In this document: one piece after another, positions 15,631-27,826 of the stretch
Layout of the letters: every line of letters starts with the position of its first letter
How positions within the stretch are numbered: the stretch's first letter is position 1
Assembly (NCBI GenBank): GCA_964453645.1
Contig: CAYVRJ010000011.1
Location: forward strand, 20,294 to 52,293
Source of the DNA: an uncultured Clostridia bacterium
GTDB lineage: Bacteria > Bacillota > Clostridia > Christensenellales > JAWKQI01
Length of the DNA: 32,000 bases
Direction of reading: 5' to 3'
Notes under the pieces: generated by a model
Databases searched by the model: none
The model's input: only the letters and a program-made list of their open reading frames with translations
What the model was told of the DNA's origin: nothing
Made by a program: the position numbers and the translations under genes

Positions 15631-16742
15631 ACGTCTTCTCCTTTTGCTGCCAACTCAACGGAGCGTTTAAAGACATCTAAAACCGAAGCACTGCCCGCCC
15701 GCATGGGATTGATGCGCAAGAAATACTCCACCCTATTTTCGTTTTCTCCGCTTAAGAATGTGCGGGATGCCTTGTAAAACATGGGGGGTATTTCATACTT
15801 GGATTCGGCACCCACCGGCCAAGTGGAAACCCCCAGCTTTGCCGCCTGTGCCATCACCCCGCTGGCGATGGGTTTTTCAAACTCCACCACCACAACTCTG
15901 GACTGCATATTGGCGATAAAGGCATTCTTTACCAGGTGTTGGCCGTTTGCCTTAAAGTCCATCATGGTTGCATAAATTTTATCTATCTCCCCCGCCTGTA
16001 TGGCCAGTGCAACAGGTGCGTTTACCAACCCCCGCAGGCATTCCATAGCCTCGTGGCCCTGCACTTTTGTGCCCCCCGAACCGGCACTCTTGGATATGGC
16101 CTCAACAATTTGAGACTTGCCCAGCACACAGCCGATCCCCTCTGCCCCCTGCAACTTAAACAGGGAGAAGGTTGTCACATCCGCACCTGCTTTGATTCCG
16201 TCGGTGTTGTCCTTAAAGATTGCATAGTTGTCGTCCACCACGGTTTTCACCCCCAACTTTGAGATGAGTTGAACCACCTCATCGAGAGAATATGAATCTG
16301 TAAGCAACTGCCTCGAGTGCTGGATCACCGCTGCCACGGGTTTTTCTTGGGTGATCACTCTTTCTAAGTTCGAAAGATCGTTAAAATCTGCAAAGACCGT
16401 TTGCAGCCCCATGCACTGGATGGTGTGTTCGGTGGTGGGATAGATGGCTGCACGGTGGAGTAAAATCTTCTCCCCCGGCGTTATCACACTCTCCAGGGCA
16501 CAGCGAATGGCTCCCGTTCCGGCACCCCGCACCAGCGCACACCCTTCAGCCCCAAAGAACTCCGCGAGCACCTTTTCGGCCCTGCACGTTTGTGCAGGTT
16601 TGCCGTTTACAGCAAGGCCCAGATCTCCCAGGGATAAAAAACTGCCGTCGGTAAACTGCTTTTGAATGCACTCCACCAGTTTGAACTGAAGGGCGATCGC
16701 CTCGTCCACGCTCAATTTTCCCAATTGTCCCGTCATACTCAC
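15621..16742 (-). CDS. yhfS: YhfS-like PLP-dependent (fold-type I) enzyme
   Basis: 373 aa. The N-terminus L.VDEAIALQFKLVECIQKQF resembles the E. coli YhfS N-terminus as I recall it. DVTTFSLFKLQGAEGIGCVLG is an S-x-x-K PLP-lysine-type motif. GTG start (an ATG lies 2 codons in). Confidence 0.7.
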   Translation of the reverse strand: MSMTGQLGKLSVDEAIALQFKLVECIQKQFTDGSFLSLGDLGLAVNGKPAQTCRAEKVLAEFFGAEGCALVRGAGTGAIRCALESVITPGEKILLHRAAIYPTTEHTIQCMGLQTVFADFNDLSNLERVITQEKPVAAVIQHSRQLLTDSYSLDEVVQLISKLGVKTVVDDNYAIFKDNTDGIKAGADVTTFSLFKLQGAEGIGCVLGKSQIVEAISKSAGSGGTKVQGHEAMECLRGLVNAPVALAIQAGEIDKIYATMMDFKANGQHLVKNAFIANMQSRVVVVEFEKPIASGVMAQAAKLGVSTWPVGAESKYEIPPMFYKASRTFLSGENENRVEYFLRINPMRAGSASVLDVFKRSVELAAKGEDVCF

Positions 16743-16763: not shown

Positions 16764-18008
16764 TTAAATTAAAAATCCAAACAACCCCTGTGTAACGTTT
16801 TGAAGCAGCCAGATGCAGATCAGTGCGATTAAGCAAACGCTGATCTGAGGAATTTTTTTACTCTTGGCGTTGAGCATATATGCCCCGATGATGATGGCTG
16901 TGCCCAAGTAGCTCCCCATGGAGAGAGTTGCCACAATGCACCCCCCCAGAAGTGCGTAGTTAAGCACACTAAACCCTACCTGCCGAATGTTTTCCGCAAA
17001 CTCCTTGAGCTTTGGCCGATTTTCAAACAATCGTGCAAGGGTAAAGGTTCCCACCGTTTCCAACAGTGCAACCACTCCCCCAGCCAGCAATGCCGCCACT
17101 GGCCCACCCCAGGCAAAAAAACCTGCTGCGGTGGCCAAACCCAACCCATCCGCTGCCAACACCCCCGAAGTAACGGCAGTGAGGGACTTGATGGGCAAAA
17201 AGGAGAGTGCCCGCACCAACGATATGCTGCCTGCACCGAGGGTGTTGCTGCCAGCAGCAGCCAGCAGACTTTGGGGGCCTTCTGCCAAAAGCCCCAAATA
17301 AACTCCAAGGGCGATCAGTCCACCCATGGCAATTGTATAGGGCAAACCCCTCAACACTCTCTTTTTGTTTTGTAAAAATAAATCCACCACCGACATTTCG
17401 GGTTTGGTGCTGCCCCCAAAAAAGGCAAACAGCACGGCAACGAAAAATCCGGCTAAAATTCCATAGTCGAACCCCAAGGTGTACCCACAGGTTATGGAAC
17501 ACACTGCCGTTGCAAGGGCCACCCACTTGCCCATGGTGTTATAGATGGCGAGTACACAAACAGCCAAAAACCCAACGGTCACAACGGGTGCCAGGATCAC
17601 CGTCACCTTGCCAATCCCTATGGGCAACCCACGGAATAACTCGTGCAGAACCAAGAGACAGAGCTTGAGCAGTGCGGCAAATCCCCCGCCCAACAGTGCG
17701 GCAACAGCCGTATTCTTGCACCGTGCCCCGATTAGGTCGGTAAACAGGAATATCAAGTGAATCAAAATATAACCCGAAAGGATGGAAAAGGGCAATCCGA
17801 TCAACAGCCCTGCACCCACCGAAACGGGCAGTGCATTTTTTAACCAATCACTTCTTGGAATACTACCCTTTGCCACTTCGGCGGCATAGGTGCGGTTTCC
17901 GTCGTGAAATACCGCAATACACCGCTGGCTCATAAACGCAGCTAGGGCGCCTATGGCAAACAAAACGGACAGTGTGATTAAATTTTGGCTTCCAAAAAGT
18001 GCGTTCAA
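16764..18008 (-). CDS. yhfT: YhfT-like polytopic membrane protein (putative transporter)
   Basis: 414 aa with at least 10 hydrophobic segments, Gly/Ala-rich. The N-terminal motif RCIAVFHDGNR resembles the AVFHDG motif I recall in E. coli YhfT. TTG start 1 nt after the yhfU-like stop codon. Confidence 0.7.
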   Translation of the reverse strand: MNALFGSQNLITLSVLFAIGALAAFMSQRCIAVFHDGNRTYAAEVAKGSIPRSDWLKNALPVSVGAGLLIGLPFSILSGYILIHLIFLFTDLIGARCKNTAVAALLGGGFAALLKLCLLVLHELFRGLPIGIGKVTVILAPVVTVGFLAVCVLAIYNTMGKWVALATAVCSITCGYTLGFDYGILAGFFVAVLFAFFGGSTKPEMSVVDLFLQNKKRVLRGLPYTIAMGGLIALGVYLGLLAEGPQSLLAAAGSNTLGAGSISLVRALSFLPIKSLTAVTSGVLAADGLGLATAAGFFAWGGPVAALLAGGVVALLETVGTFTLARLFENRPKLKEFAENIRQVGFSVLNYALLGGCIVATLSMGSYLGTAIIIGAYMLNAKSKKIPQISVCLIALICIWLLQNVTQGLFGFLI

Positions 18009-18009
18009 A

Positions 18010-18357
18010 TTAGTTTACCGCCTTAGCAAAGGCGCCCACAGCGCTCTGCATTTGATCTGCGGCAAAACCAAAGGCAACCACTCCCTTTTGAACCAACTGG
18101 GCCACATCGGCCTCGTCGGCTGGTTTGCCGGGTGCGGCAATGGTCTTTGCCTTGTCCATTCCCAGCAGGGCCACTGCCATGGCAACTGCTCCCCCGCCGG
18201 TGTGGCACGCACCCAAATAGTACTCCGCCTTGTTTTGTTTGAGTGCCATTGCGGCATCCAAATCGCTCAGAATTTCTATTTCACAATTGGGTATGGCTGT
18301 TAAAACCAGCTCGGCAATGGCCTGTTTTTCCACCTGTCCGCCAATCACGATCTTCAT
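18010..18357 (-). CDS. yhfU: YhfU-like DUF2620 protein
   Basis: 115 aa. MKIVIGGQ... and YYLGACHTGGGAVAMAVALLG...VAFG match the DUF2620/YhfU pattern as I recall it (YYIGACNTGAGAAL). It starts 2 nt after the hyuA stop. Confidence 0.75.
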   Translation of the reverse strand: MKIVIGGQVEKQAIAELVLTAIPNCEIEILSDLDAAMALKQNKAEYYLGACHTGGGAVAMAVALLGMDKAKTIAAPGKPADEADVAQLVQKGVVAFGFAADQMQSAVGAFAKAVN

Positions 18358-18359
18358 TG

Positions 18360-20387
18360 CTATTTACTCTCCCACGTTATCAATATATTGTTTAAATTGT
18401 CCACTTCAAAGGCATCTCCCTCATCCACCAGCACCGTGGTATCCATCTGTTCGATGATGCAGGGGCCAACACCCTTGTATCCGCTTTTCAGTTCCTCCCG
18501 GGCAAAAACGGGCACCGTCTTATCCATACCCCGCAAGCAAACCCGCCTGGTGCCTATGGGCTTTGCGTCCCCCGAGGCACAGCCGTCTCCGCCAAGTTCA
18601 ATCTTTTGCAGCAGCCCAAACCCTGCAACTCGAATGTTTACCAGTTCCAGCGGTGCGGTTAATTCCGAAGAATATCCAAAGGACTTTTGATGCAGTTCCT
18701 TAAATTTGCGGGCAATGGCCTTATAGTCCGAGATATCCTGCTCTTCAATCTGCATGGTCAACTCGTGAGTCTGGGCGGCATAACGCAGATCCAAATACAT
18801 TGTTATCCTTTGTTTATTTTGCTCAAATCCCGACTGTTTTAAATCCCCACAGGCTTGCTCCACCAGAGTGGAGAACTCTTCACCCAACTGCAAAGAGGAG
18901 ACGTCGGATAAATTTTTAATGATACTCTTTACGTAATCGTAGCGCACATCACTCATCAACAGCCCCATAGCGGCTGTGATACCCGGATAGCGGGGAACGA
19001 TCACTTTTGTCATACCCAAGTTCTTGGCAACGTCCACTGCTTGCAGCGGCCCCGCACCGCCGCAGGCGAACAGCGCAAACTCCCGGATATCGAAGCCCCT
19101 GTTCATAGTTAAGCGGCGAATGGCGTTGCAGATGTTGTTGTTTACGATATCGATCATACCCTGGGCAGCAGCATTGGTGTTTAACTTCAAGGGTTTTGCA
19201 ATCTTTTCATCGATCCTCTTTTCGGAAAGGGAAGCGTTGATGGCAAACTTTCCGCCCAGCAAGTATTCTCGGTTTAATCTGCCCAAGTGTACGTTGGCAT
19301 CCGTTAGCGTTGGGTTTTCACCGCCCTGATCATAACACACCGGACCGGGCATTGCACCCGCCGATTGGGGGCCCATGTTGAGCATTCCCCCCCTGTCTAT
19401 GTGGGCAATGGTTCCGCCCCCCGCTCCAATGGTGACCACGTCGATGATGGGCAGGTGTACCACCGTTCCAAATTCAATCTCCTGTTCGTCCCGGGTGAGC
19501 AGTTCACCGTTGCATACGATGGCGATATCCGTGCTCGTTCCCCCGATGTCGATGGAGACCACGTTTTCTTCCCCAATTGCACTGCAAATGCCTTTTAGGG
19601 CAATGGCTGCCGCCGCAGGGCCGGAGAGCAGGGAACGGGGTGCAATCTTTTCCACGGGGAAAGCAGGGGCAACACCTCCGTTGGAGAGCATGAGTAAAAG
19701 TTCTTTTGAATACCCACGCTGTTTCACTTCATCATATAATACCGAGAGATAATTTTCAAGCAAAGGCCCCACATATGCGGCCACACTCACCGTGCTCATG
19801 CGCTCAAACTCCCGCCACTCGCAGAGCAACGTGTTAGAACAAGTGACGTATAAATCCGGAAATTCCTCCAAAATCCACTTCTGTGCCGTCAGTTCGTGCT
19901 GAGGGTTTGCGTACGAGTTAATAAAACAGATGGCGATGGCTTTGATTCCATCTTCCCATAATTTCTTCACAAGACCTATGAGCTCTTCCCGATTGAGGGG
20001 CTTAATCACGTTACCCCATCCGTCAATGCGCTCATCCACCTCCGTGCGGTACTTGCGGGTTATCAGCTCTTCGGGCTGATCCCACTGCAAGTCGTAGAGC
20101 ACACCTCTGGTGGTTCGCCGAATTTTCAGCACATCCCGAAACCCCTTTGTGGTGATTAGGGCCACACTGGAACCGTTTTTCTCGATGACTGCATTGGTGG
20201 CAACAGTGGTGCCGTGGAGGAATAAATCCACTTCTTTTAAGTCATATCCGCTTGCGTTCACAGCGTTCATAACGCCTGTGCGCTGGTTTTTGGGCGTGGA
20301 ATGCACTTTATGTACGGTGATTTCGCTGCCATTATAAAATATTCCGTCGGTGAACGTTCCGCCCACATCGATTCCGATTAGTTTCAT
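18360..20387 (-). CDS. hyuA: Hydantoinase/oxoprolinase family protein, A subunit type
   Basis: 675 aa with the N-terminal MKLIGIDVGGTFTDGIF and a second ASKHA-type motif VSIDIGGTSTDIA. Length is typical of Hydant_A proteins. Confidence 0.9.
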   Translation of the reverse strand: MKLIGIDVGGTFTDGIFYNGSEITVHKVHSTPKNQRTGVMNAVNASGYDLKEVDLFLHGTTVATNAVIEKNGSSVALITTKGFRDVLKIRRTTRGVLYDLQWDQPEELITRKYRTEVDERIDGWGNVIKPLNREELIGLVKKLWEDGIKAIAICFINSYANPQHELTAQKWILEEFPDLYVTCSNTLLCEWREFERMSTVSVAAYVGPLLENYLSVLYDEVKQRGYSKELLLMLSNGGVAPAFPVEKIAPRSLLSGPAAAAIALKGICSAIGEENVVSIDIGGTSTDIAIVCNGELLTRDEQEIEFGTVVHLPIIDVVTIGAGGGTIAHIDRGGMLNMGPQSAGAMPGPVCYDQGGENPTLTDANVHLGRLNREYLLGGKFAINASLSEKRIDEKIAKPLKLNTNAAAQGMIDIVNNNICNAIRRLTMNRGFDIREFALFACGGAGPLQAVDVAKNLGMTKVIVPRYPGITAAMGLLMSDVRYDYVKSIIKNLSDVSSLQLGEEFSTLVEQACGDLKQSGFEQNKQRITMYLDLRYAAQTHELTMQIEEQDISDYKAIARKFKELHQKSFGYSSELTAPLELVNIRVAGFGLLQKIELGGDGCASGDAKPIGTRRVCLRGMDKTVPVFAREELKSGYKGVGPCIIEQMDTTVLVDEGDAFEVDNLNNILITWESK

Positions 20388-22111
20388 GCTCTCCCCCTCA
20401 TCTGCTCTCTCAAGGTTTGGGTGGCTGCAACGTCAATTGTGCCCTCCCGTATGACAACGCCGTAACACTCCTCTGCGTGACTAAGCGTGATATATCCCTG
20501 TGTATAATCGTCCAACACCTTCTCTACATCTCTGTTCAGGGGATCGCCGTAACCACCCCCGCCGGCAACCAAGATGGTCACTTCGTCTCCGGCTTGAATT
20601 TGGTATCCCGATGCTTTTAAGGTGAGGTTTATCTCGTTTTCCTTACCCATGTTGAGTTTCAGCCCTTGGTGTAGGGCCTCTTTTCCCCCAAACAATCCCC
20701 AGGGCGGATAAATCTCCCGATCGCCTAAGGCGGTGAGTTTTGCAGTACCCCTGGTTAAAATAAAGGATTTTATAGAACCGTTGCCCCCCCTGTGCTCTCC
20801 CGGCCCACCGGAATTTTCCCGCAACGACCACTGGGTGAACAGCATGGGGTATTTGCGCTCGAACACCTCCACAGGGGTGATCCTCGCCCCACCGCCGAAC
20901 AGGGAGACCAGTCCGGCCGAACCGTCTTTGGTGGCTCTGCCCCCAAAACCGCCCTCGCTGAACAGATAGGCCACGTAATATCCGCTGGTCTCCTCGTCGT
21001 TGCCCCCAATGGTCAAGTTGATCAATCCGTGGGGACAGCCGGTGGATTTTTCGGGCACGGCCTGTGCCAATGCCCCTAGACACACCCCAATTACCTTCTC
21101 GTACACCGTTGCCGCCATGGCACTAATGGCCGCTGGCGGACAGGCGTTCACCACTGTTGCCTGGGGTATTACAAAATCTACGGGCAGGAAGCACCCGTAG
21201 TTCATGGGAATATCGGGAAATAGGGATTTAATCGTCACGATGACGGCTGAAACTGTGGAGGAATAGGTGGAATTCGCTGCACTTCTTGTTTGAGGATCGC
21301 AGTCCGAAAAGTCAAACTTCATCCTGTTGCCGCAAACTGTCATGGTAACGGCAATCTTCACAGGGTCATCGCTGTATTTGCTCTCTTTGTCCATGTATTC
21401 ATAAAACGAATACGTCCCGTCGGGCACGTTTTCGATCTCTTTTTCCAGCATAATTCTTGCGTATTCAATGGTCTTTTCCATGTATGTGAGAATGGTTTCC
21501 TTGCCGTACTTTTGGGCAAGCTCCAGTATCCTCTGTGCACCAATGTTAACAGACGAAATCTGGGAGGCTAAATCTCCCTTGCGCTCCCAAGGTAAGCGTA
21601 CATTTGCTAAAATAATGTTCTCGATTCCCTCCTGCATCACCCCTTTTGACACAATTTTAACAGGGGGTATGCGTATGCCCTCTTCAAAGTGTTCCTCCGC
21701 AACCGAAGATAAACTGCCGGGTGTCGCACCACCCACGTCGGCCCAGTGGCCTGCAATGGCTGCAAAGCCAATCCGCTCCCCTTCATAAAACACGGGGCAG
21801 ATGACCTCCACGTCGTTAAAATGGGTTCCCCCAACGAAAGGGTCGTTGTTGATAAACACATCCCCTTCACAAATATCGTTTTTATATTTTTCCACAATGT
21901 AACTGACCGAGTATTCCATCATCGTGACGAATACGGCCAGATCGGACTCCCCTTGGGCGATTAAGTGCCCATCCCTGTTAAAGAGTGCTGCGCCGATATC
22001 CCTTCCCTCTGTGATGACGGCCGAGTATGCAGAGCGAAACATGTTTATGTTCATCTCATCCGCAATGCTCTTAAAAGCGCTCTGCAATACCGAAAATGTA
22101 ATGGCATCCAT
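20384..22111 (-). CDS. hyuB: Hydantoinase B/oxoprolinase family protein
   Basis: 575 aa. MDAITFSVLQSAFKSIADEMNINMFRSAYSAVITEGRDIGAALFNRDGHLIAQ is the typical Hydantoinase_B N-terminus. 4-nt ATGA overlap with hyuA. Confidence 0.9.
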   Translation of the reverse strand: MDAITFSVLQSAFKSIADEMNINMFRSAYSAVITEGRDIGAALFNRDGHLIAQGESDLAVFVTMMEYSVSYIVEKYKNDICEGDVFINNDPFVGGTHFNDVEVICPVFYEGERIGFAAIAGHWADVGGATPGSLSSVAEEHFEEGIRIPPVKIVSKGVMQEGIENIILANVRLPWERKGDLASQISSVNIGAQRILELAQKYGKETILTYMEKTIEYARIMLEKEIENVPDGTYSFYEYMDKESKYSDDPVKIAVTMTVCGNRMKFDFSDCDPQTRSAANSTYSSTVSAVIVTIKSLFPDIPMNYGCFLPVDFVIPQATVVNACPPAAISAMAATVYEKVIGVCLGALAQAVPEKSTGCPHGLINLTIGGNDEETSGYYVAYLFSEGGFGGRATKDGSAGLVSLFGGGARITPVEVFERKYPMLFTQWSLRENSGGPGEHRGGNGSIKSFILTRGTAKLTALGDREIYPPWGLFGGKEALHQGLKLNMGKENEINLTLKASGYQIQAGDEVTILVAGGGGYGDPLNRDVEKVLDDYTQGYITLSHAEECYGVVIREGTIDVAATQTLREQMRGRA

Positions 22112-22199: not shown

Positions 22200-23492
22200 T
22201 TATTTTTTCTTGATCAAGGAGAGGATGAAGTACAGCGCTCCGCCCACTACCAAGCTGTTAATACCCGAAACGCCGATGGCAGAACCGAAGATATATCCGC
22301 CAAAGATGTTGCTGGCCGTTAAGAAATCCACCAGAATGGCCACAACCCAGCTAATCACTGCAATGGCGTTAAAATCAACGATATTTTCGGATTTGTTGGG
22401 TACGTTCTTTTTCACAAAGAAGTAGTCAATGGCAATGATGGCGCCGATGGGCGGAATCAGCATTGCTAAAATGCCCAGGTAGGCGAACAGGTTTGTGTAT
22501 ACGCCCGATGCGGCAATGATGGCACCGATCACAACGGTGATGATGGTGAACACATACTTTGGCGCCTTAAACATTTTGGAGCAAGCCAGACCGGCAGAGT
22601 ATACGTTGTTGTCTCCCGAAGTCCACGAGGAGATGAGCAGCAGCAGGAAACCAACCCACATGAGCACCGGGCCACCGGCACTAACGATAACCGTTACCAA
22701 ATCTCCCATGCCCGTGCCCTTCACGGCAACAGCACCCAAGGAGACGAACAGGAAAAAGCCCAGTCCAAAGGAGATGAGTGATGCAAGGGCAGATTTTTTG
22801 CCGGGGATACTATATCTCGTTACGTCGCTCACCAGAGTTGCACCCACTGCAAAGATTCCGATGGTGCCGGTGATCGCCAACCCAAAGGGCATAGCTTCGC
22901 CAACCGGCGCAAGTGCGCTGATGGCATCCCAGCCGCCGCCCTGGTTCACGCCCAGCGTTGCGGCATAGATAAACAATGCCAGCATGGGCAGCACAGAGAT
23001 TTTGCTGAGCATGGAAACGCCCTTAAAGCCGAACAGGGAAGACGTACCCATGACGATTGCAAACAGGATACCGCCCCAGACCGCAAAACTTCCCGGTTCT
23101 GCGCCGAACACACCCTCCAAGCTCATGACAAACACGCCCACGACCACGCCGTAGAAGATGATGTTTGCCAAAGCCATTGCAACGGAAACGATGTTCGCAC
23201 CCTTGTCTCCAAAGGCGATTCTCGACAACATCGCTGTGGACACACCCTCTTTGGCTCCGGCAACAGCCAGCGGCATGGAATATAAGCCCAGAATGAGTGC
23301 ACCGATGAAAATAGCGGCTAATGCCGAGCCAAGCGTCATTTGGGAAGCAATACTTCCCCCCGTAATTGCAGGAGTTGGGTTAATAACCCACGCCATCAAC
23401 ACGGCAACAATGGCCCACAGTCCTTTTCTTTCGGACAACGGCACAACATTGAGTTCGTTGTCTGAAAACAGTTTTGGTGTTTTTTTAGACAT
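22200..23492 (-). CDS. NCS1-family (purine-cytosine/hydantoin/allantoin-type) permease
   Basis: About 12 hydrophobic segments. The CodB-like N-terminal region reads VPLSERKGLWAIVAVLMAWVINPT...GLYSMPLAVAGAKEGVSTAMLSRIAFGDKGANI. I prefer ATG at 23492 (MSKKTPKLF, GGAGGA 8 nt upstream, 430 aa) over the track start at 23540. Confidence 0.8.
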   Translation of the reverse strand: MSKKTPKLFSDNELNVVPLSERKGLWAIVAVLMAWVINPTPAITGGSIASQMTLGSALAAIFIGALILGLYSMPLAVAGAKEGVSTAMLSRIAFGDKGANIVSVAMALANIIFYGVVVGVFVMSLEGVFGAEPGSFAVWGGILFAIVMGTSSLFGFKGVSMLSKISVLPMLALFIYAATLGVNQGGGWDAISALAPVGEAMPFGLAITGTIGIFAVGATLVSDVTRYSIPGKKSALASLISFGLGFFLFVSLGAVAVKGTGMGDLVTVIVSAGGPVLMWVGFLLLLISSWTSGDNNVYSAGLACSKMFKAPKYVFTIITVVIGAIIAASGVYTNLFAYLGILAMLIPPIGAIIAIDYFFVKKNVPNKSENIVDFNAIAVISWVVAILVDFLTASNIFGGYIFGSAIGVSGINSLVVGGALYFILSLIKKK

Positions 23493-23540
23493 ATTTTTTC
23501 CTCCTTCGCCATTTTGGCAATTAGAAAAATATAAAATCAA

Positions 23541-23903
23541 TTAATTTCCCAAAATAAGCACGTAGAGTAGGATAAAGACTGCTTCATCACTGACTCCCTG
23601 TGTGCTGACGTTATACCCCTCGTACACTTTTTTGACGATGGTTTCAATATCCTTGCGCTTTTGGCCGTGGACTTCAATTTCGTTTAAAACTTGGGGGGTA
23701 GGTTTGCTGCACTCACCTTTTAATATGCGGTTGCTGGCCAACAAAATATGGTTGATCATCGAACCCGCGTTACTCTCGGTTAGTTCCATGTTGAGATATG
23801 TGCCCAGGCCGTGTAGAATCTTCATGGTTATGTCCACACTTTGTTGTGTCACCAAACCCGCTTCTAGTAACAGATTGATCCTGTTTTGAATCCCTTCGTC
23901 CAT
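23541..23903 (-). CDS. yhfY: YhfY-like stand-alone PRD-domain protein
   Basis: 120 aa, all-helical. AGSMINHILLASNRI is the PRD-type conserved-His motif (H52), with further His at 31 and 78. Same length as E. coli YhfY. GGAGGG RBS. Confidence 0.7.
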   Translation of the reverse strand: MDEGIQNRINLLLEAGLVTQQSVDITMKILHGLGTYLNMELTESNAGSMINHILLASNRILKGECSKPTPQVLNEIEVHGQKRKDIETIVKKVYEGYNVSTQGVSDEAVFILLYVLILGN

Positions 23904-23918
23904 GTTTTACACCCTCCG

Positions 23919-24839
23919 TTAATATTTGGGCAGCATCTTATCTTCAATAATCTGCCGCTGAATCTCTACTACACGACCTACGTCGATCACTTCGTTTAAG
24001 ATATAGTGCTGATGGAGTTTTTCCTTTAAGCACACGATCACCGCTTCGGTGTCCATTTTCAACATGTCGCTGGGCAAGTTAAGTTCGATGCACTTTAATT
24101 GGGAAAAGCGCTCCTGCGCCTCATCGCCGTTCCAAACGGCCACGTCCACCTCACCCAAATCCAATTTCTTGATCAACTGGTTGTAGGGGCATTTGATAAA
24201 CTCCGCCTGTGCGTCCTTGAGCCACTGCTGGGTCATAAACATTTGGTCGATGGAGTTTGGATCCACCGCCACCCGTATGCCGTCGAAGGGTTCACCCGAG
24301 AAACCGTCTCGCAAAATGATGGCATGGCCGCCAACATAGGAACCCGATCCAAAGCCCATTGCAATCTCCAACCCCTCGTCCCGCTTCATGGCCTCCACAG
24401 CCGCCAAGTGGGAGCAAACCGCAAAATCGTATCTGCCCGCCAGCACGCCGCTAATTCTCGCATCCGATCCCCGCTGATAGGCTAAGTTAAACTCGATATC
24501 CGCACTTTCAAATTCGGTATAGAGGGCTGTTGCCAGCCCCTCGTACCGCTTGGAATAGGGAAGGGGCATTGTGCCAAAAATCGAGGAAAATCCCGCAATG
24601 TTAAACAGCTTTTTCTTGTGAATGTCCGTGATGAAGGTGCCCGTATGCCCTGTGGCTTTTAGGGCAACGCCTCCGTTTTCCTTTAAAAAAGCCAGTGCGT
24701 TTTGAACCGTTCCCCTGCCCACGCCAATGTCCTTGGCAAAGTCCTCGACCCGGGGAATCTTGTCGCCTATCTTCATACTCAAAAACATTCCGGCAATTTG
24801 CTTGACTGCAATGCCGTTGTTTGTTATTAGCTTGCTCAT
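23919..24839 (-). CDS. yhfZ: YhfZ-like DNA-binding regulator (N-terminal GntR-like HTH plus periplasmic-binding-protein-like C-terminal domain)
   Basis: 306 aa. N-terminal IPRVEDFAKDIGVGRGTVQNALAFLKENGGVALKATGHTGTFI is a winged-HTH pattern. Size and position next to the PRD gene are as in E. coli yhfZ-yhfY. Confidence 0.65.
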   Translation of the reverse strand: MSKLITNNGIAVKQIAGMFLSMKIGDKIPRVEDFAKDIGVGRGTVQNALAFLKENGGVALKATGHTGTFITDIHKKKLFNIAGFSSIFGTMPLPYSKRYEGLATALYTEFESADIEFNLAYQRGSDARISGVLAGRYDFAVCSHLAAVEAMKRDEGLEIAMGFGSGSYVGGHAIILRDGFSGEPFDGIRVAVDPNSIDQMFMTQQWLKDAQAEFIKCPYNQLIKKLDLGEVDVAVWNGDEAQERFSQLKCIELNLPSDMLKMDTEAVIVCLKEKLHQHYILNEVIDVGRVVEIQRQIIEDKMLPKY

Positions 24840-24889: not shown

Positions 24890-24940
24890 AATATACAGTA
24901 AACTGTATATTCATTATATCACGGCCATCGCTTTTGTCAA
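24890..24940 (-). promoter_or_regulatory. Promoter of the yhf-like operon with an abutting 22-bp palindrome (candidate YhfZ operator)
   Basis: Minus strand: TTGACA (24940-24935), 16 nt, extended -10 TGaTATAAT (TATAAT = 24918-24913). One nt downstream lies AATATACAGT-aa-ACTGTATATT (24890-24911), with perfect 10-bp arms covering the expected transcription start. Confidence 0.55.
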
Positions 24941-25023: not shown

Positions 25024-25818
25024 TTAGGACAACAGCATCTCGTCCGTCTCTTCCTGTGCCCCAGCCAACTGGGCAAATTTGCTTATGAGATCGGCTTTTT
25101 TAAGCTGTTTCTTCTCTTCCCCGGAGATATCTAAAATAATTTTTCCCAAATTCATCATGATCAACCGGTTTCCGTGGCGAATGGCATCGGACATATTGTG
25201 GGTGATCATCATTGCAGTGAGGTTATTTTCCGCAATAATTTGTTCCGTCAACTCTAAGACTTTGGCAGCAGTTGCCGGATCCAGCGCTGCCGTGTGTTCA
25301 TCCAGCAGCAAAAGCTTTGGTTTTTTCAGCGTTGCCATTAAGAGGGTGAGCGCTTGCCGCTGCCCTCCGGAGAGTAACCCAACTTTGGAAGTCATTCTGC
25401 CTTCCAATCCCAAACCAAGCTTTTTTAAATACTCGTGGTAACGCTCCCGCTCGGACTTTAAAATGCCCCATTTTAAGGTGCGCTTTTCTCCCCGGCGCAG
25501 GGCAAGGGCTAAATTTTCGTCGATGCCCATGTTTGCTGCCGTGCCCATCATTGGATCTTGAAAGATGTGTCCAATATATCCCGCACGCTTGTGTTCGGGC
25601 AGGGACGAAACGTCACTTCCGTTGATAATGATGGAACCCTCGTCGATGGGCCAAACGCCCGCCACAGCGTTGAGCATGGTGGATTTACCCGCTCCGTTGC
25701 CCCCGATGACGGTAATAAAATCACCTTCGTTTATTTTTAAATCAATGCCGCAAAGGGCTTTCTTTTCGTTAATGGTTCCTATATTAAAGGTCTTATGGAT
25801 ATTGACAAGCTCTAACAT
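25024..25818 (-). CDS. ABC transporter ATP-binding protein
   Basis: Walker A GGNGAGKST, signature LSGGQRQ, Walker B LLLLDEHTAALD. It starts immediately after the permease stop. Confidence 0.9.
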   Translation of the reverse strand: MLELVNIHKTFNIGTINEKKALCGIDLKINEGDFITVIGGNGAGKSTMLNAVAGVWPIDEGSIIINGSDVSSLPEHKRAGYIGHIFQDPMMGTAANMGIDENLALALRRGEKRTLKWGILKSERERYHEYLKKLGLGLEGRMTSKVGLLSGGQRQALTLLMATLKKPKLLLLDEHTAALDPATAAKVLELTEQIIAENNLTAMMITHNMSDAIRHGNRLIMMNLGKIILDISGEEKKQLKKADLISKFAQLAGAQEETDEMLLS

Positions 25819-26760
25819 TTACTTCACCTTCCCTTTGCCCAAACTCTTAAAGGAGTTTTTGGACTTTGCACGAAGATAAGGGATCGCAAGGAAAATTGCC
25901 ACAATGACTGCTGTGAGCAACTTTAGCATATCTGTGGGCATTTTTAACCACATGACGATGCCAATGACTAAATAATACACCACACCGCCTAAAATGACAA
26001 AAGCCAAACGAAGGGCGAAATTTACATTCTTCCCAACAATCACTTCGCCGATGATCACAGCGGCTAAGCCGATGACAATTGCACCCTGTCCCATTTTAAT
26101 ATCCGCAAACCCTTGAAATTGCGTCATCAGGGCACCGGACAGTGCAACCAATCCGTTTGATAGACACAAAGCGATGACCTTCATCACATTGATGTTAATG
26201 CCCAGCGCTTTAGCCATATTGGGGTTGCTGCCCGTGGCTCTCAGTGCACTGCCCTGCTCTGTGCCAAAGTACCAGTAGAGCAGACAAATTAATGCACCAC
26301 CAAATAAAACCACGGTCAATATGGAACCCCATACATCCCGCAAGCTCACCATCAGTGAGTACTTGTCCACATTCACTGCTTTGTTGGCTCCCCCAAGGAT
26401 TAATAGGTTCACAGACCAAAGGGAGATTTGTGTGAGGATTCCCGCTAAAATGCCGGGAATGCCCAGGACAGTGTGCAAGATTCCGGTGATGCAACCCGCA
26501 ATCACCCCGACGATTACAGCAACGACAATCGCCAGGGGAGCGGGCACACCCGAAACAATTAAAACAACAGCCACAGCCCCTCCGGTTGCAAAGGAGCCGT
26601 CGACAGTTAGATCAGCAAAATCCAGCAAACGATATGTAATGAACACACCCAAAGCCATCATACCCCAAATGATACCTTGGGCAATATTACCCGGCAGGGC
26701 AGACAGCAGGTTCACGGGGTTTAGGGATGAGAAGTACTCAAGCACATTCATAACAATCAT
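25819..26760 (-). CDS. ABC transporter permease (partner of PF04392-type binding proteins)
   Basis: 313 aa with ~9 hydrophobic segments. Located between the binding-protein and ATPase genes. Confidence 0.8.
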   Translation of the reverse strand: MIVMNVLEYFSSLNPVNLLSALPGNIAQGIIWGMMALGVFITYRLLDFADLTVDGSFATGGAVAVVLIVSGVPAPLAIVVAVIVGVIAGCITGILHTVLGIPGILAGILTQISLWSVNLLILGGANKAVNVDKYSLMVSLRDVWGSILTVVLFGGALICLLYWYFGTEQGSALRATGSNPNMAKALGININVMKVIALCLSNGLVALSGALMTQFQGFADIKMGQGAIVIGLAAVIIGEVIVGKNVNFALRLAFVILGGVVYYLVIGIVMWLKMPTDMLKLLTAVIVAIFLAIPYLRAKSKNSFKSLGKGKVK

Positions 26761-26786
26761 TTCCTTTCCTGGAGGCCTAGGTCTCT

Positions 26787-27785
26787 TTACTCTGCAATGG
26801 GTTCGTAGTTACTGGGGGGAACAATATTCAACTCTTCGCAAATTTTTGCGTTGTATAACTGAGTGAATTTGGGTGCATACCGTATTTCCATTGCTGCGGG
26901 ATCGGCACCGTTCACTAAAATCTCATACGCCATTTCACCAGTAGTATATCCAAGATCGTAGTAACTAATAGAGAGTGTGGCCACACCACATCCCTTGCAG
27001 ATGCCCTCTTCTCCAGCGATTACGGGAATCTTAGCGGGTACGCAAATGTTTTTCACGATTTCTGCGTTGGATGCAACAGCGTTGTCGGTGGGAACATAAA
27101 TCACTTCGCTGTCCGCAGCGGCAGCAGTGACAACCGATTGCAGATCATTAGAATCCGAAAAGGTGTAGTCCTTGCAGGTATATCCCATGTCTGTCAAGTG
27201 CTTGGAGATCACCTGTGCCTGATACTTGGAGTTGGGTTCTGCCGAGCAATAGAGTATGCCCACTTTTTTGGCATCGGGGAACAGTTCGTTTAACATTTTT
27301 GCCTGCTGATCCAAAGGAGCCAGGTCGGAAGTTCCCGAAACGTTTTTACCCGTAACACCCGTCCAGTCGCTGATATCCAGGGCTGTGCCGTAGTCGGTTA
27401 CTGAGGTTCCCAGAATGGGAATTTTATCCGTTGCCGTTTGTGCCGCTTGCAGGGCAGGTGTTGCATTTGCCATAATCAGATCCACATTAGAAGAGACAAA
27501 CTGGTTGGCAATCACCGCACAAGTGGGTGAATCTCCCGAAGCGTTTTGTTCGTCAAACGTGATTTGATCCCCCAACTTTTCTTTGAGGGCATCTTTAAAC
27601 CCTTGGGTGGCCGCATCCAGCGCTGGATGTTGTACCAATTGACAAATTCCAACAGTGTAGGTCTTTGCCTCAGCAGCAGGTTGGCTGTTCTCTTTAGATG
27701 GCTCAGGTGCAGCAGGTGCTCCGCACGCTGCCAAGGCCATCAGGATTACGATTGCTAGTGTCAGTGCAACAATTTTGTTTTTCAT
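26787..27785 (-). CDS. ABC transporter substrate-binding lipoprotein (ABC_sub_bind / PF04392-like)
   Basis: Signal peptide plus lipobox (LMALAACG). TYTVGICQLVQHPALDAA..GF is the typical start of this family. I prefer ATG at 27785 (AAGGAGG 6 nt upstream) over the track GTG at 27803. Confidence 0.8.
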   Translation of the reverse strand: MKNKIVALTLAIVILMALAACGAPAAPEPSKENSQPAAEAKTYTVGICQLVQHPALDAATQGFKDALKEKLGDQITFDEQNASGDSPTCAVIANQFVSSNVDLIMANATPALQAAQTATDKIPILGTSVTDYGTALDISDWTGVTGKNVSGTSDLAPLDQQAKMLNELFPDAKKVGILYCSAEPNSKYQAQVISKHLTDMGYTCKDYTFSDSNDLQSVVTAAAADSEVIYVPTDNAVASNAEIVKNICVPAKIPVIAGEEGICKGCGVATLSISYYDLGYTTGEMAYEILVNGADPAAMEIRYAPKFTQLYNAKICEELNIVPPSNYEPIAE

Positions 27786-27826
27786 TTTCATCCTCCTTAG
27801 CACTTAAAGTCGCTTACATATATTTT

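Follow-up and report, generated by a model that had tools for sequence, protein, structure and literature searches.

A yhf operon that ends in Enzyme I and HPr genes

The window, a 32,000-nucleotide (nt) stretch of DNA from an uncultured Clostridia bacterium, carries a string of 13 tightly spaced genes on the minus strand (yhfZ-yhfY-NCS1-hyuB-hyuA-yhfU-yhfT-yhfS-yhfX-yhfW-ptsH-ptsI-Imm5-like), in which the genes for YhfU and YhfT lie in one operon with those for Enzyme I (EI) and HPr of the phosphoenolpyruvate (PEP)-dependent phosphotransferase system (PTS). YhfU (18010..18357) is a 115-residue DUF2620 protein with a predicted RpiB/LacAB-like fold, and YhfT (16764..18008) is a 414-residue polytopic membrane protein; both assignments come from Pfam, alignments and structure models. 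The yhfT start codon is TTG, located 1 nt past the yhfU stop codon. YhfU begins with MKIVIGGQ and contains Cys51-His52 within YYLGACHTGGGAVAM. An earlier note on this DNA had described the pair in these terms, and its coordinates, strand, 1-nt gap, N-terminal sequence and Cys-His loop were confirmed. The same note recognised no EIIA, EIIB or EIIC component in the operon, and our profile searches agree, finding no match to EIIA, EIIB or EIIC models among the operon proteins. Both proteins match their families over their full length (YhfU, PF10941, 123.4 bits against a cut-off of 25, residues 1–113; YhfT, PF10797, 174.7 bits against 26.1, residues 15–406) and, judged by sequence, are ordinary members of the DUF2620 and YhfT families.

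The remaining genes, all on the minus strand, encode a regulator, a permease and a set of enzymes. The string opens with a YhfZ-type regulator with HTH_41 and YhfZ_C domains (23919..24839; YhfZ_C E 2.9e-69), 5′ of which lies a promoter-like site (24913..24940) that fits TTGACA-16-TATAAT perfectly (12/12, plus a TG extension) as a consensus match only. YhfY (23541..23903) is a stand-alone PRD protein of 120 residues with a weak PRD match (E 0.0068). Inserted between yhfY and yhfU are genes for an NCS1-family permease of the cytosine/hydantoin type (22200..23540), a hydantoinase B/oxoprolinase subunit (hyuB; 20384..22111; E 2.6e-165) and, according to Pfam, a hydantoinase A/oxoprolinase subunit (hyuA; 18360..20387). 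Downstream of yhfT come the pyridoxal phosphate (PLP) fold-type I enzyme YhfS (15621..16742), the alanine-racemase-like PLP enzyme YhfX (14482..15630) and the phosphopentomutase-like metalloenzyme YhfW (13290..14522; NF009049, 417 bits). YhfW retains the metal ligands and nucleophile position of the Bacillus cereus phosphopentomutase, so that a phosphorylated intermediate, as proposed in the earlier note, is a reasonable expectation. HPr (ptsH; 13018..13278), with His15 in the motif GLHARPA, and EI (ptsI; 11278..12915) follow, and no convincing intergenic terminator was found within the yhf–pts gene string. An Imm5-like putative immunity protein gene (10725-11252) lies 25 nt 3′ of ptsI on the same strand. 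At the other end, directly upstream of the yhf promoter and again on the minus strand, are genes for an ATP-binding cassette transporter (25024-27803) comprising a PF04392 binding protein, a BPD_transp_2 permease and an ATPase.

The Escherichia coli K-12 cluster yhfZ-yhfY-yhfX-yhfW-php-yhfU-yhfT-yhfS comprises the same Pfam families (YhfZ_C, PRD, DUF2620, YhfT, YhfS-like_C, YhfX-like_C and the metalloenzyme mutase), and an E. coli YhfT is 29% identical to that of the window. Unlike the E. coli cluster, the window operon lacks php, has NCS1-hyuB-hyuA between yhfY and yhfU and has ptsH-ptsI appended. We found no functional study of YhfT, YhfU, DUF2620, the other yhf genes or php in the literature searched.

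The operon holds the only Enzyme I of the genome

The host assembly comprises 2.28 Mb in 19 contigs and is 92% complete. One EI N-domain is present in the whole genome, and it belongs to the EI of the window, which is complete in its three domains and retains both the TSHA phospho-His motif and the catalytic Cys. There are two HPr genes, of which that in the window is the sole one to encode His15. The EI and HPr that the earlier note called private are thus both in the operon, but they are not an extra set; rather, they are the only EI and the only His15-HPr that the genome has. Whole-genome profile searches with eleven Pfam models, spanning the EIIA, EIIB, EIIC, Dak-linked and PRD families, all came back empty, with no PTS_EIIC, EIIC-GAT, EII-Sor, EII-GUT, EIIA_1, EIIA_2, EIIA-man or PTS_IIB and no PRD protein above cut-off elsewhere in the genome. 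Likewise, tblastn with DhaK, DhaL and DhaM from the sister genus found no Dak1, Dak2 or EIIA-man subunit in the genome. Beyond this operon, we recognise no client of the PEP–EI–HPr chain in this organism.

YhfU is absent from all 60 genomes examined from the same order, and EI is present in 13 of them, so the operon and its EI and HPr stand alone in the lineage. The sister genus, represented by the only other genome of the same family, has a dhaK-dhaL-dhaM-ptsH-ptsI operon (10315-14265, minus strand, of C4:32000-51900); because its EI and HPr genes end a dhaKLM operon, they would serve a non-transport client there too. The EI of the sister genus is only 34% identical to that of the window, which represents an orphan, fast-diverged lineage no more than 38% identical to any other EI found in a large protein collection. 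No close relatives of this operon variant were found, the best identities being 56% for YhfU, 34% for YhfT and 38% for EI.

Two other genes of the host are related to these PTS proteins. The second HPr-family gene (C5:95589-95825) encodes a Crh-like protein with Asn in place of His15 and the Ser46 motif kept, and the genome also has an HprK/P gene (C9:41805-42308); given both, Ser46-type catabolite control seems to exist here without any PTS transporter. A 427-residue EI paralogue (C6:148781-150064; L100:6782-8065, plus strand) consists of PEP-utilizers and PEP-utilizers_C domains only, without the N-terminal HPr-binding domain; at 45% identity, it is nearer to the window EI than is any other EI from a collection of 5.8 billion proteins. 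Its gene overlaps the start of an IF-2B/MtnA-family isomerase gene (L100:8058-9092), and the two may form a PEP-dependent kinase plus isomerase.

YhfU has a predicted RpiB-like fold

AlphaFold2 predicted YhfU with high confidence (predicted local distance difference test (pLDDT) score 96.2) as five beta-alpha units, in which Cys51, part of a C-x-T-G-G-G loop, lies where strand 3 ends and precedes helix 3. When the model was compared with the PDB by Foldseek, the first 21 matches were all RpiB/LacAB isomerases (query-normalised template-modelling (TM) score 0.64–0.79, probability 1.00) and the next were flavodoxins and receiver domains; no PTS EIIB was among the top 50. An hhalign comparison with the genome's own RpiB gave a weak alignment (E 0.014) that nevertheless matched Cys51 and Thr53 to the catalytic Cys and Thr, respectively, of the CGTGIG loop. 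Pfam searches at E values up to 10 matched YhfU to DUF2620 only, with neither PF02502 nor EIIB of the PF02302, PF00367 and PF03830 types. The phospho-Cys loop of EIIB comes after strand 1, and the Cys of YhfU follows strand 3. On the basis of the model, YhfU belongs with the RpiB fold and not the EIIB fold, as a minimal and divergent representative.

The RpiB/LacAB isomerases (PF02502; for example, PDB 6fxs, 3s5p, 1o1x and 4lfk) have in common with YhfU the five-strand alpha/beta fold and a Cys after strand 3 in a C-x-T-G-x-G loop, with a Thr two residues on. In contrast to these isomerases, YhfU is 30–40 residues shorter (ending at residue 115, compared with 153 in RpiB), lacks the C-terminal helix and has a gene tied to membrane-protein and PRD genes; it also has GGQ in place of the Asp-His motif that follows strand 1 in RpiB. 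The C-terminal helix of RpiB carries phosphate-binding arginines.

In an alignment of 44 DUF2620 homologues, Cys51 is invariant (44/44), and Thr53 and the run of Gly residues vary little or not at all. The window YhfU keeps the family-invariant G6, G7, K11, D32, K40, Y46 and Y47 together with the C51-x-T53-G-G-G loop. His52 is present in at least 90% of the homologues; the copies from Leptotrichia and Sneathia, as well as one paralogue, have Asn there, and some other members have Tyr. Of the Cys-His loop to which the earlier note drew attention, the Cys is therefore conserved but the His varies, which makes a strict Cys-His dyad unlikely. The window protein is itself an outlier, at most 56% identical to any relative, and has five near-invariant residues replaced (C70A, S74A, M75A, T99A and H102Q). 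The presence of Tyr114 at a position of YhfY that is otherwise almost always His parallels this loss.

YhfT is predicted to have a fold without a solved relative

YhfT belongs to a small family (134 clusters at 50% identity among 1.84 billion representatives). All 24 invariant columns of a 38-sequence YhfT alignment are kept in the window copy, including D36, R39, H84, T90, D91, E317 and R342. Its structure was modelled with confidence (pLDDT 89, predicted TM score 0.88) as about a dozen long helices together with short hairpin-like helices. Foldseek found nothing similar to this model (best E 0.15, TM score 0.20) and no EIIC among the matches, profile searches of PDB sequences found no relative, and Pfam searches at E values up to 10 across all 38 aligned members found no second family. 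Comparison of the N-terminal and C-terminal halves by hhalign gave a match (E 6.8e-4, probability 27%) that fits the repeated helix pattern of the model but is too faint a signal for a two-fold internal repeat to be asserted. YhfT resembles the PTS EIIC families (PF02378, PF03611, PF03609 and PF03608) neither in sequence nor in fold. The structural comparison with EIIB and EIIC folds that the earlier note had proposed therefore turned out negative for both proteins. Searches of PDB chains with YhfU and YhfT, as single sequences and as profiles, gave chance matches only (threonine dehydrogenase, IMPDH, cytochrome c6 and thymidylate synthase), which we rejected.

A PRD–YhfU–YhfT trio is conserved in related operons

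In a scan of one genome per species, 406 species were found to encode a YhfU relative, and we examined the best 80 loci. YhfU and YhfT are both present in 78 of these, with yhfT directly after yhfU in nearly all, and YhfS, YhfX, YhfW and YhfZ each occur in 74–77. A PTE-family Php is encoded in 67 of 77 operons; HyuA, HyuB and NCS1 are encoded in none of the 80 loci. Recurrent accessory genes encode hydrolases, namely amidase-like (24 loci) and beta-lactamase-like (10 loci) proteins, M20 peptidases and alpha/beta hydrolases, as well as NagB-like proteins and FAD (flavin adenine dinucleotide)-oxidases. No kinase recurs across the 77 related operons, even though a phosphomutase with intact catalytic residues is part of their core.

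Of the 65 loci in which the pair is adjacent, 59 have a small open reading frame immediately 5′ of yhfU, and it matches PRD where tested. When these 59 products were aligned with the window YhfY, H52, R8, R59 and E107 were invariant and a second His was 97% conserved; the window YhfY keeps His52 and has Tyr114 in place of the second His. Moreover, the PRD–YhfU–YhfT trio stays contiguous in rearranged operons. One metagenome contig (ENA; 2179-11744) has two DUF2620–YhfT pairs in a single operon (YhfZ-U-T-YhfS-YhfX-PRD-U-T-PTE-YhfW), the second YhfU of which has Asn-Ser for His52-Thr53.

Pooled distance matrices gave a correlation of 0.91 between YhfU and YhfT, as opposed to 0.44–0.55 with YhfS, YhfW and Php. 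When the main operon architecture is taken alone, every pair correlates at 0.79–0.95, and in the second architecture the YhfU–YhfT value is 0.49; the pooled co-variation is largely an effect of the two architectures. YhfU and YhfT are the slowest-evolving operon proteins, with mean corrected distances of 0.47 and 0.44 compared with 0.62–0.95 for the enzymes and regulator, and the window YhfT, with identities of 34% or less, lies far outside that range.

The association with EI and HPr that the earlier note expected in related genomes is rare at the operon itself but general at the level of the genome. HPr adjoins the operon in two of the 80 loci and EI in one, on a contig that ends 20 codons into a typical EI N-terminus, whereas 42 of the 43 YhfU-bearing genomes searched encode an EI somewhere, and in the remaining one the beginning of an EI gene is cut off by a contig end. 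This last genome, that of Anaeromonas frigoriresistens (17306-18407), has a NagB-like gene and HPr behind its yhf operon and then the opening 20 codons of EI, where the contig stops. Searches of it revealed no further EI N-domain but four canonical EIIC genes.

A candidate PEP-fed module of non-PTS folds

The reading that we favour, tentatively and with a little less than even confidence, is that YhfY, YhfU and YhfT constitute a module, made of non-PTS folds, for uptake and phosphorylation that is fed by PEP through EI and HPr. It is preferred because no kinase recurs in operons that conserve a phosphomutase, because the PRD, YhfU and YhfT genes are strictly adjacent and because Cys51 is invariant in a helix-capping glycine loop. 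The whole-genome inventory, the isolation of the operon and its EI and HPr among relatives and the presence of EI in 42 of 43 YhfU genomes also count in its favour. The analysis shows the folds, conservation, gene order and genome inventory; all phosphotransfer steps and the role of Cys51, as set out next, are inferred. The PRD protein YhfY, YhfU and YhfT would work together as a single module, drawing phosphate from PEP via the EI and HPr encoded in the operon and spending it on the uptake and phosphorylation of the operon's substrate, or on its phosphorylation at the membrane. A compound with an amide or lactam linkage, amino-sugar-like or amino-acid-like, is the probable substrate. YhfT would be the membrane-embedded subunit for substrate binding and translocation, and YhfU the cytoplasmic subunit docked on it. 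Within this module, Cys51 of YhfU, in its glycine-rich loop at a helix N-terminus, would most likely be the phosphoryl carrier; less likely, it would be a catalytic base acting on the product once phosphorylated. That product would then be handled by the mutase YhfW and the PLP enzymes YhfS and YhfX. In the window operon, the usual Php hydrolase appears to be replaced by the ATP-dependent ring-opening enzyme HyuA/HyuB, with the NCS1 permease added. Given that EI and HPr have no recognisable client outside the operon, the minimum conclusion would be that HPr phosphorylates YhfY.

The genomic setting is that of known PTS Enzyme II systems (Glc-Fru-Lac, Gat, Asc, Man and Gut), with EI, HPr, a PRD protein, no kinase, enzymes for phosphorylated intermediates and a small Cys protein encoded beside a polytopic membrane protein. 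Unlike those systems, YhfU and YhfT have no sequence or fold similarity to EIIB and EIIC, and there is no EIIA. The PEP-dependent dihydroxyacetone kinase DhaKLM likewise has EI and HPr serving a non-transport or non-canonical client, whereas this genome has no Dak1, Dak2 or EIIA-man homologues. Two of the three proposals of the earlier note, which did not choose among them, changed accordingly. The first, an EIIB-like YhfU with YhfT as the translocating subunit of a new PTS family, lost its resemblance to EIIB and EIIC, YhfU having an RpiB/LacAB-like predicted fold and YhfT no solved one, but gained on the feeding of the operon by EI and HPr. The second, a cytoplasmic phosphorylation step fed by EI and HPr, was likewise strengthened by the sole EI and HPr, the lack of any known Enzyme II or of a PRD regulator elsewhere in the genome and the lack of a recurrent kinase, but the DhaKLM logic attached to it was rejected for this genome, since DhaK, DhaL and DhaM are absent.

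A bolder form of the same idea is that YhfY–YhfU–YhfT is an eighth, non-homologous kind of PTS Enzyme II, in which PEP, through EI and HPr, would phosphorylate a PRD protein in the EIIA role and/or an RpiB-fold Cys protein in the EIIB role, and the phosphate would go on to a substrate bound to a membrane protein whose fold is absent from the PDB; we consider this rather unlikely.

Several observations weigh against the PEP-fed module. The Foldseek matches of YhfU and its alignment with RpiB both lead to isomerases, and to our knowledge all characterised members of the RpiB/LacAB fold are isomerases and none is a phospho-carrier. No EIIA-like protein was found that could bridge HPr and YhfU. 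His52 varies in the family, the window YhfU has lost five near-invariant residues and no relative of the window YhfT exceeds 34% identity to it. The separate NCS1 permease is a possible importer for this operon, EI and HPr seldom adjoin yhf operons elsewhere, and the assembly is incomplete.

Alternative roles for EI, HPr and the YhfU–YhfT pair

EI and HPr may instead, in line with the third proposal of the earlier note, phosphorylate just YhfY and thereby modulate YhfZ, with YhfT an ordinary secondary carrier and YhfU a soluble enzyme of the pathway, an RpiB-like isomerase or epimerase with Cys51 as its base. We regard this main rival as a serious possibility, albeit a doubtful one. It fits the RpiB/LacAB-like fold of YhfU with Cys51 and Thr53 at the catalytic positions, the invariant PRD histidine retained by YhfY and the rarity of EI and HPr next to yhf operons (2/80), and the NagB-like and mutase genes indicate a sugar-phosphate chemistry in which an isomerase would be at home. 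However, it leaves the phosphorylated intermediate without a recurrent kinase, and an isolated isomerase sits poorly with the fact that neither rearrangements nor a duplication have separated YhfU from YhfT and the PRD gene. YhfU also lacks the phosphate-binding C-terminal helix of RpiB and its Asp-His motif after strand 1, and a genome without a PTS transporter would have to retain EI and HPr merely to switch one regulator.

It is improbable, in our view, that YhfU and YhfT form a membrane transceptor that reports the substrate to YhfZ together with YhfY while the NCS1 permease does the importing here. The presence of that separate permease in the operon is consistent with such a sensor, as are the slow evolution of YhfU and YhfT and the pooled distance matrices, in which YhfZ, YhfU and YhfT co-vary more with one another than with the enzymes. 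However, this co-variation stems largely from the two operon architectures, canonical operons have no other transporter and the source of phosphate would go unexplained. Finally, an ordinary general PTS, whose canonical Enzyme II lies hidden in the unassembled 8% and whose ptsH-ptsI genes follow yhfW incidentally, is allowed by a genome that is 92% complete and has a parallel in A. frigoriresistens, where the only detected ptsH-ptsI follows the yhf operon and four canonical EIIC genes are present, but is very improbable given that all eleven Pfam models (EIIA, EIIB, EIIC, Dak-linked and PRD) drew a blank, that most relatives lack EI and that the window EI is a fast-diverged orphan at no more than 38% identity to any other.

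Implications for the Enzyme II catalogue and the yhf families

After sixty years of work on the PTS, the Enzyme II families are regarded as catalogued. If the PEP-fed module proposed here is real, an isomerase-like fold and an unseen membrane fold would extend that catalogue. What is new from this window is the genome-wide absence of any other PTS client: as EI and HPr have no other recognisable partner, any PEP-dependent phosphorylation in this genome must pass through the operon, and the genome is the cleanest natural test case seen among those examined. Were the module indeed an eighth kind of Enzyme II, this genome would be a natural minimal case, with the module as the sole client of EI and HPr. 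Whatever becomes of the PTS reading, the confident YhfT model is one without a relative among solved structures, and even if that reading fails, YhfU would represent a minimal RpiB-fold branch tied to a membrane protein. If it is true, it would provide a function for two orphan Pfam families, DUF2620 and YhfT, and for the yhf operon of E. coli.

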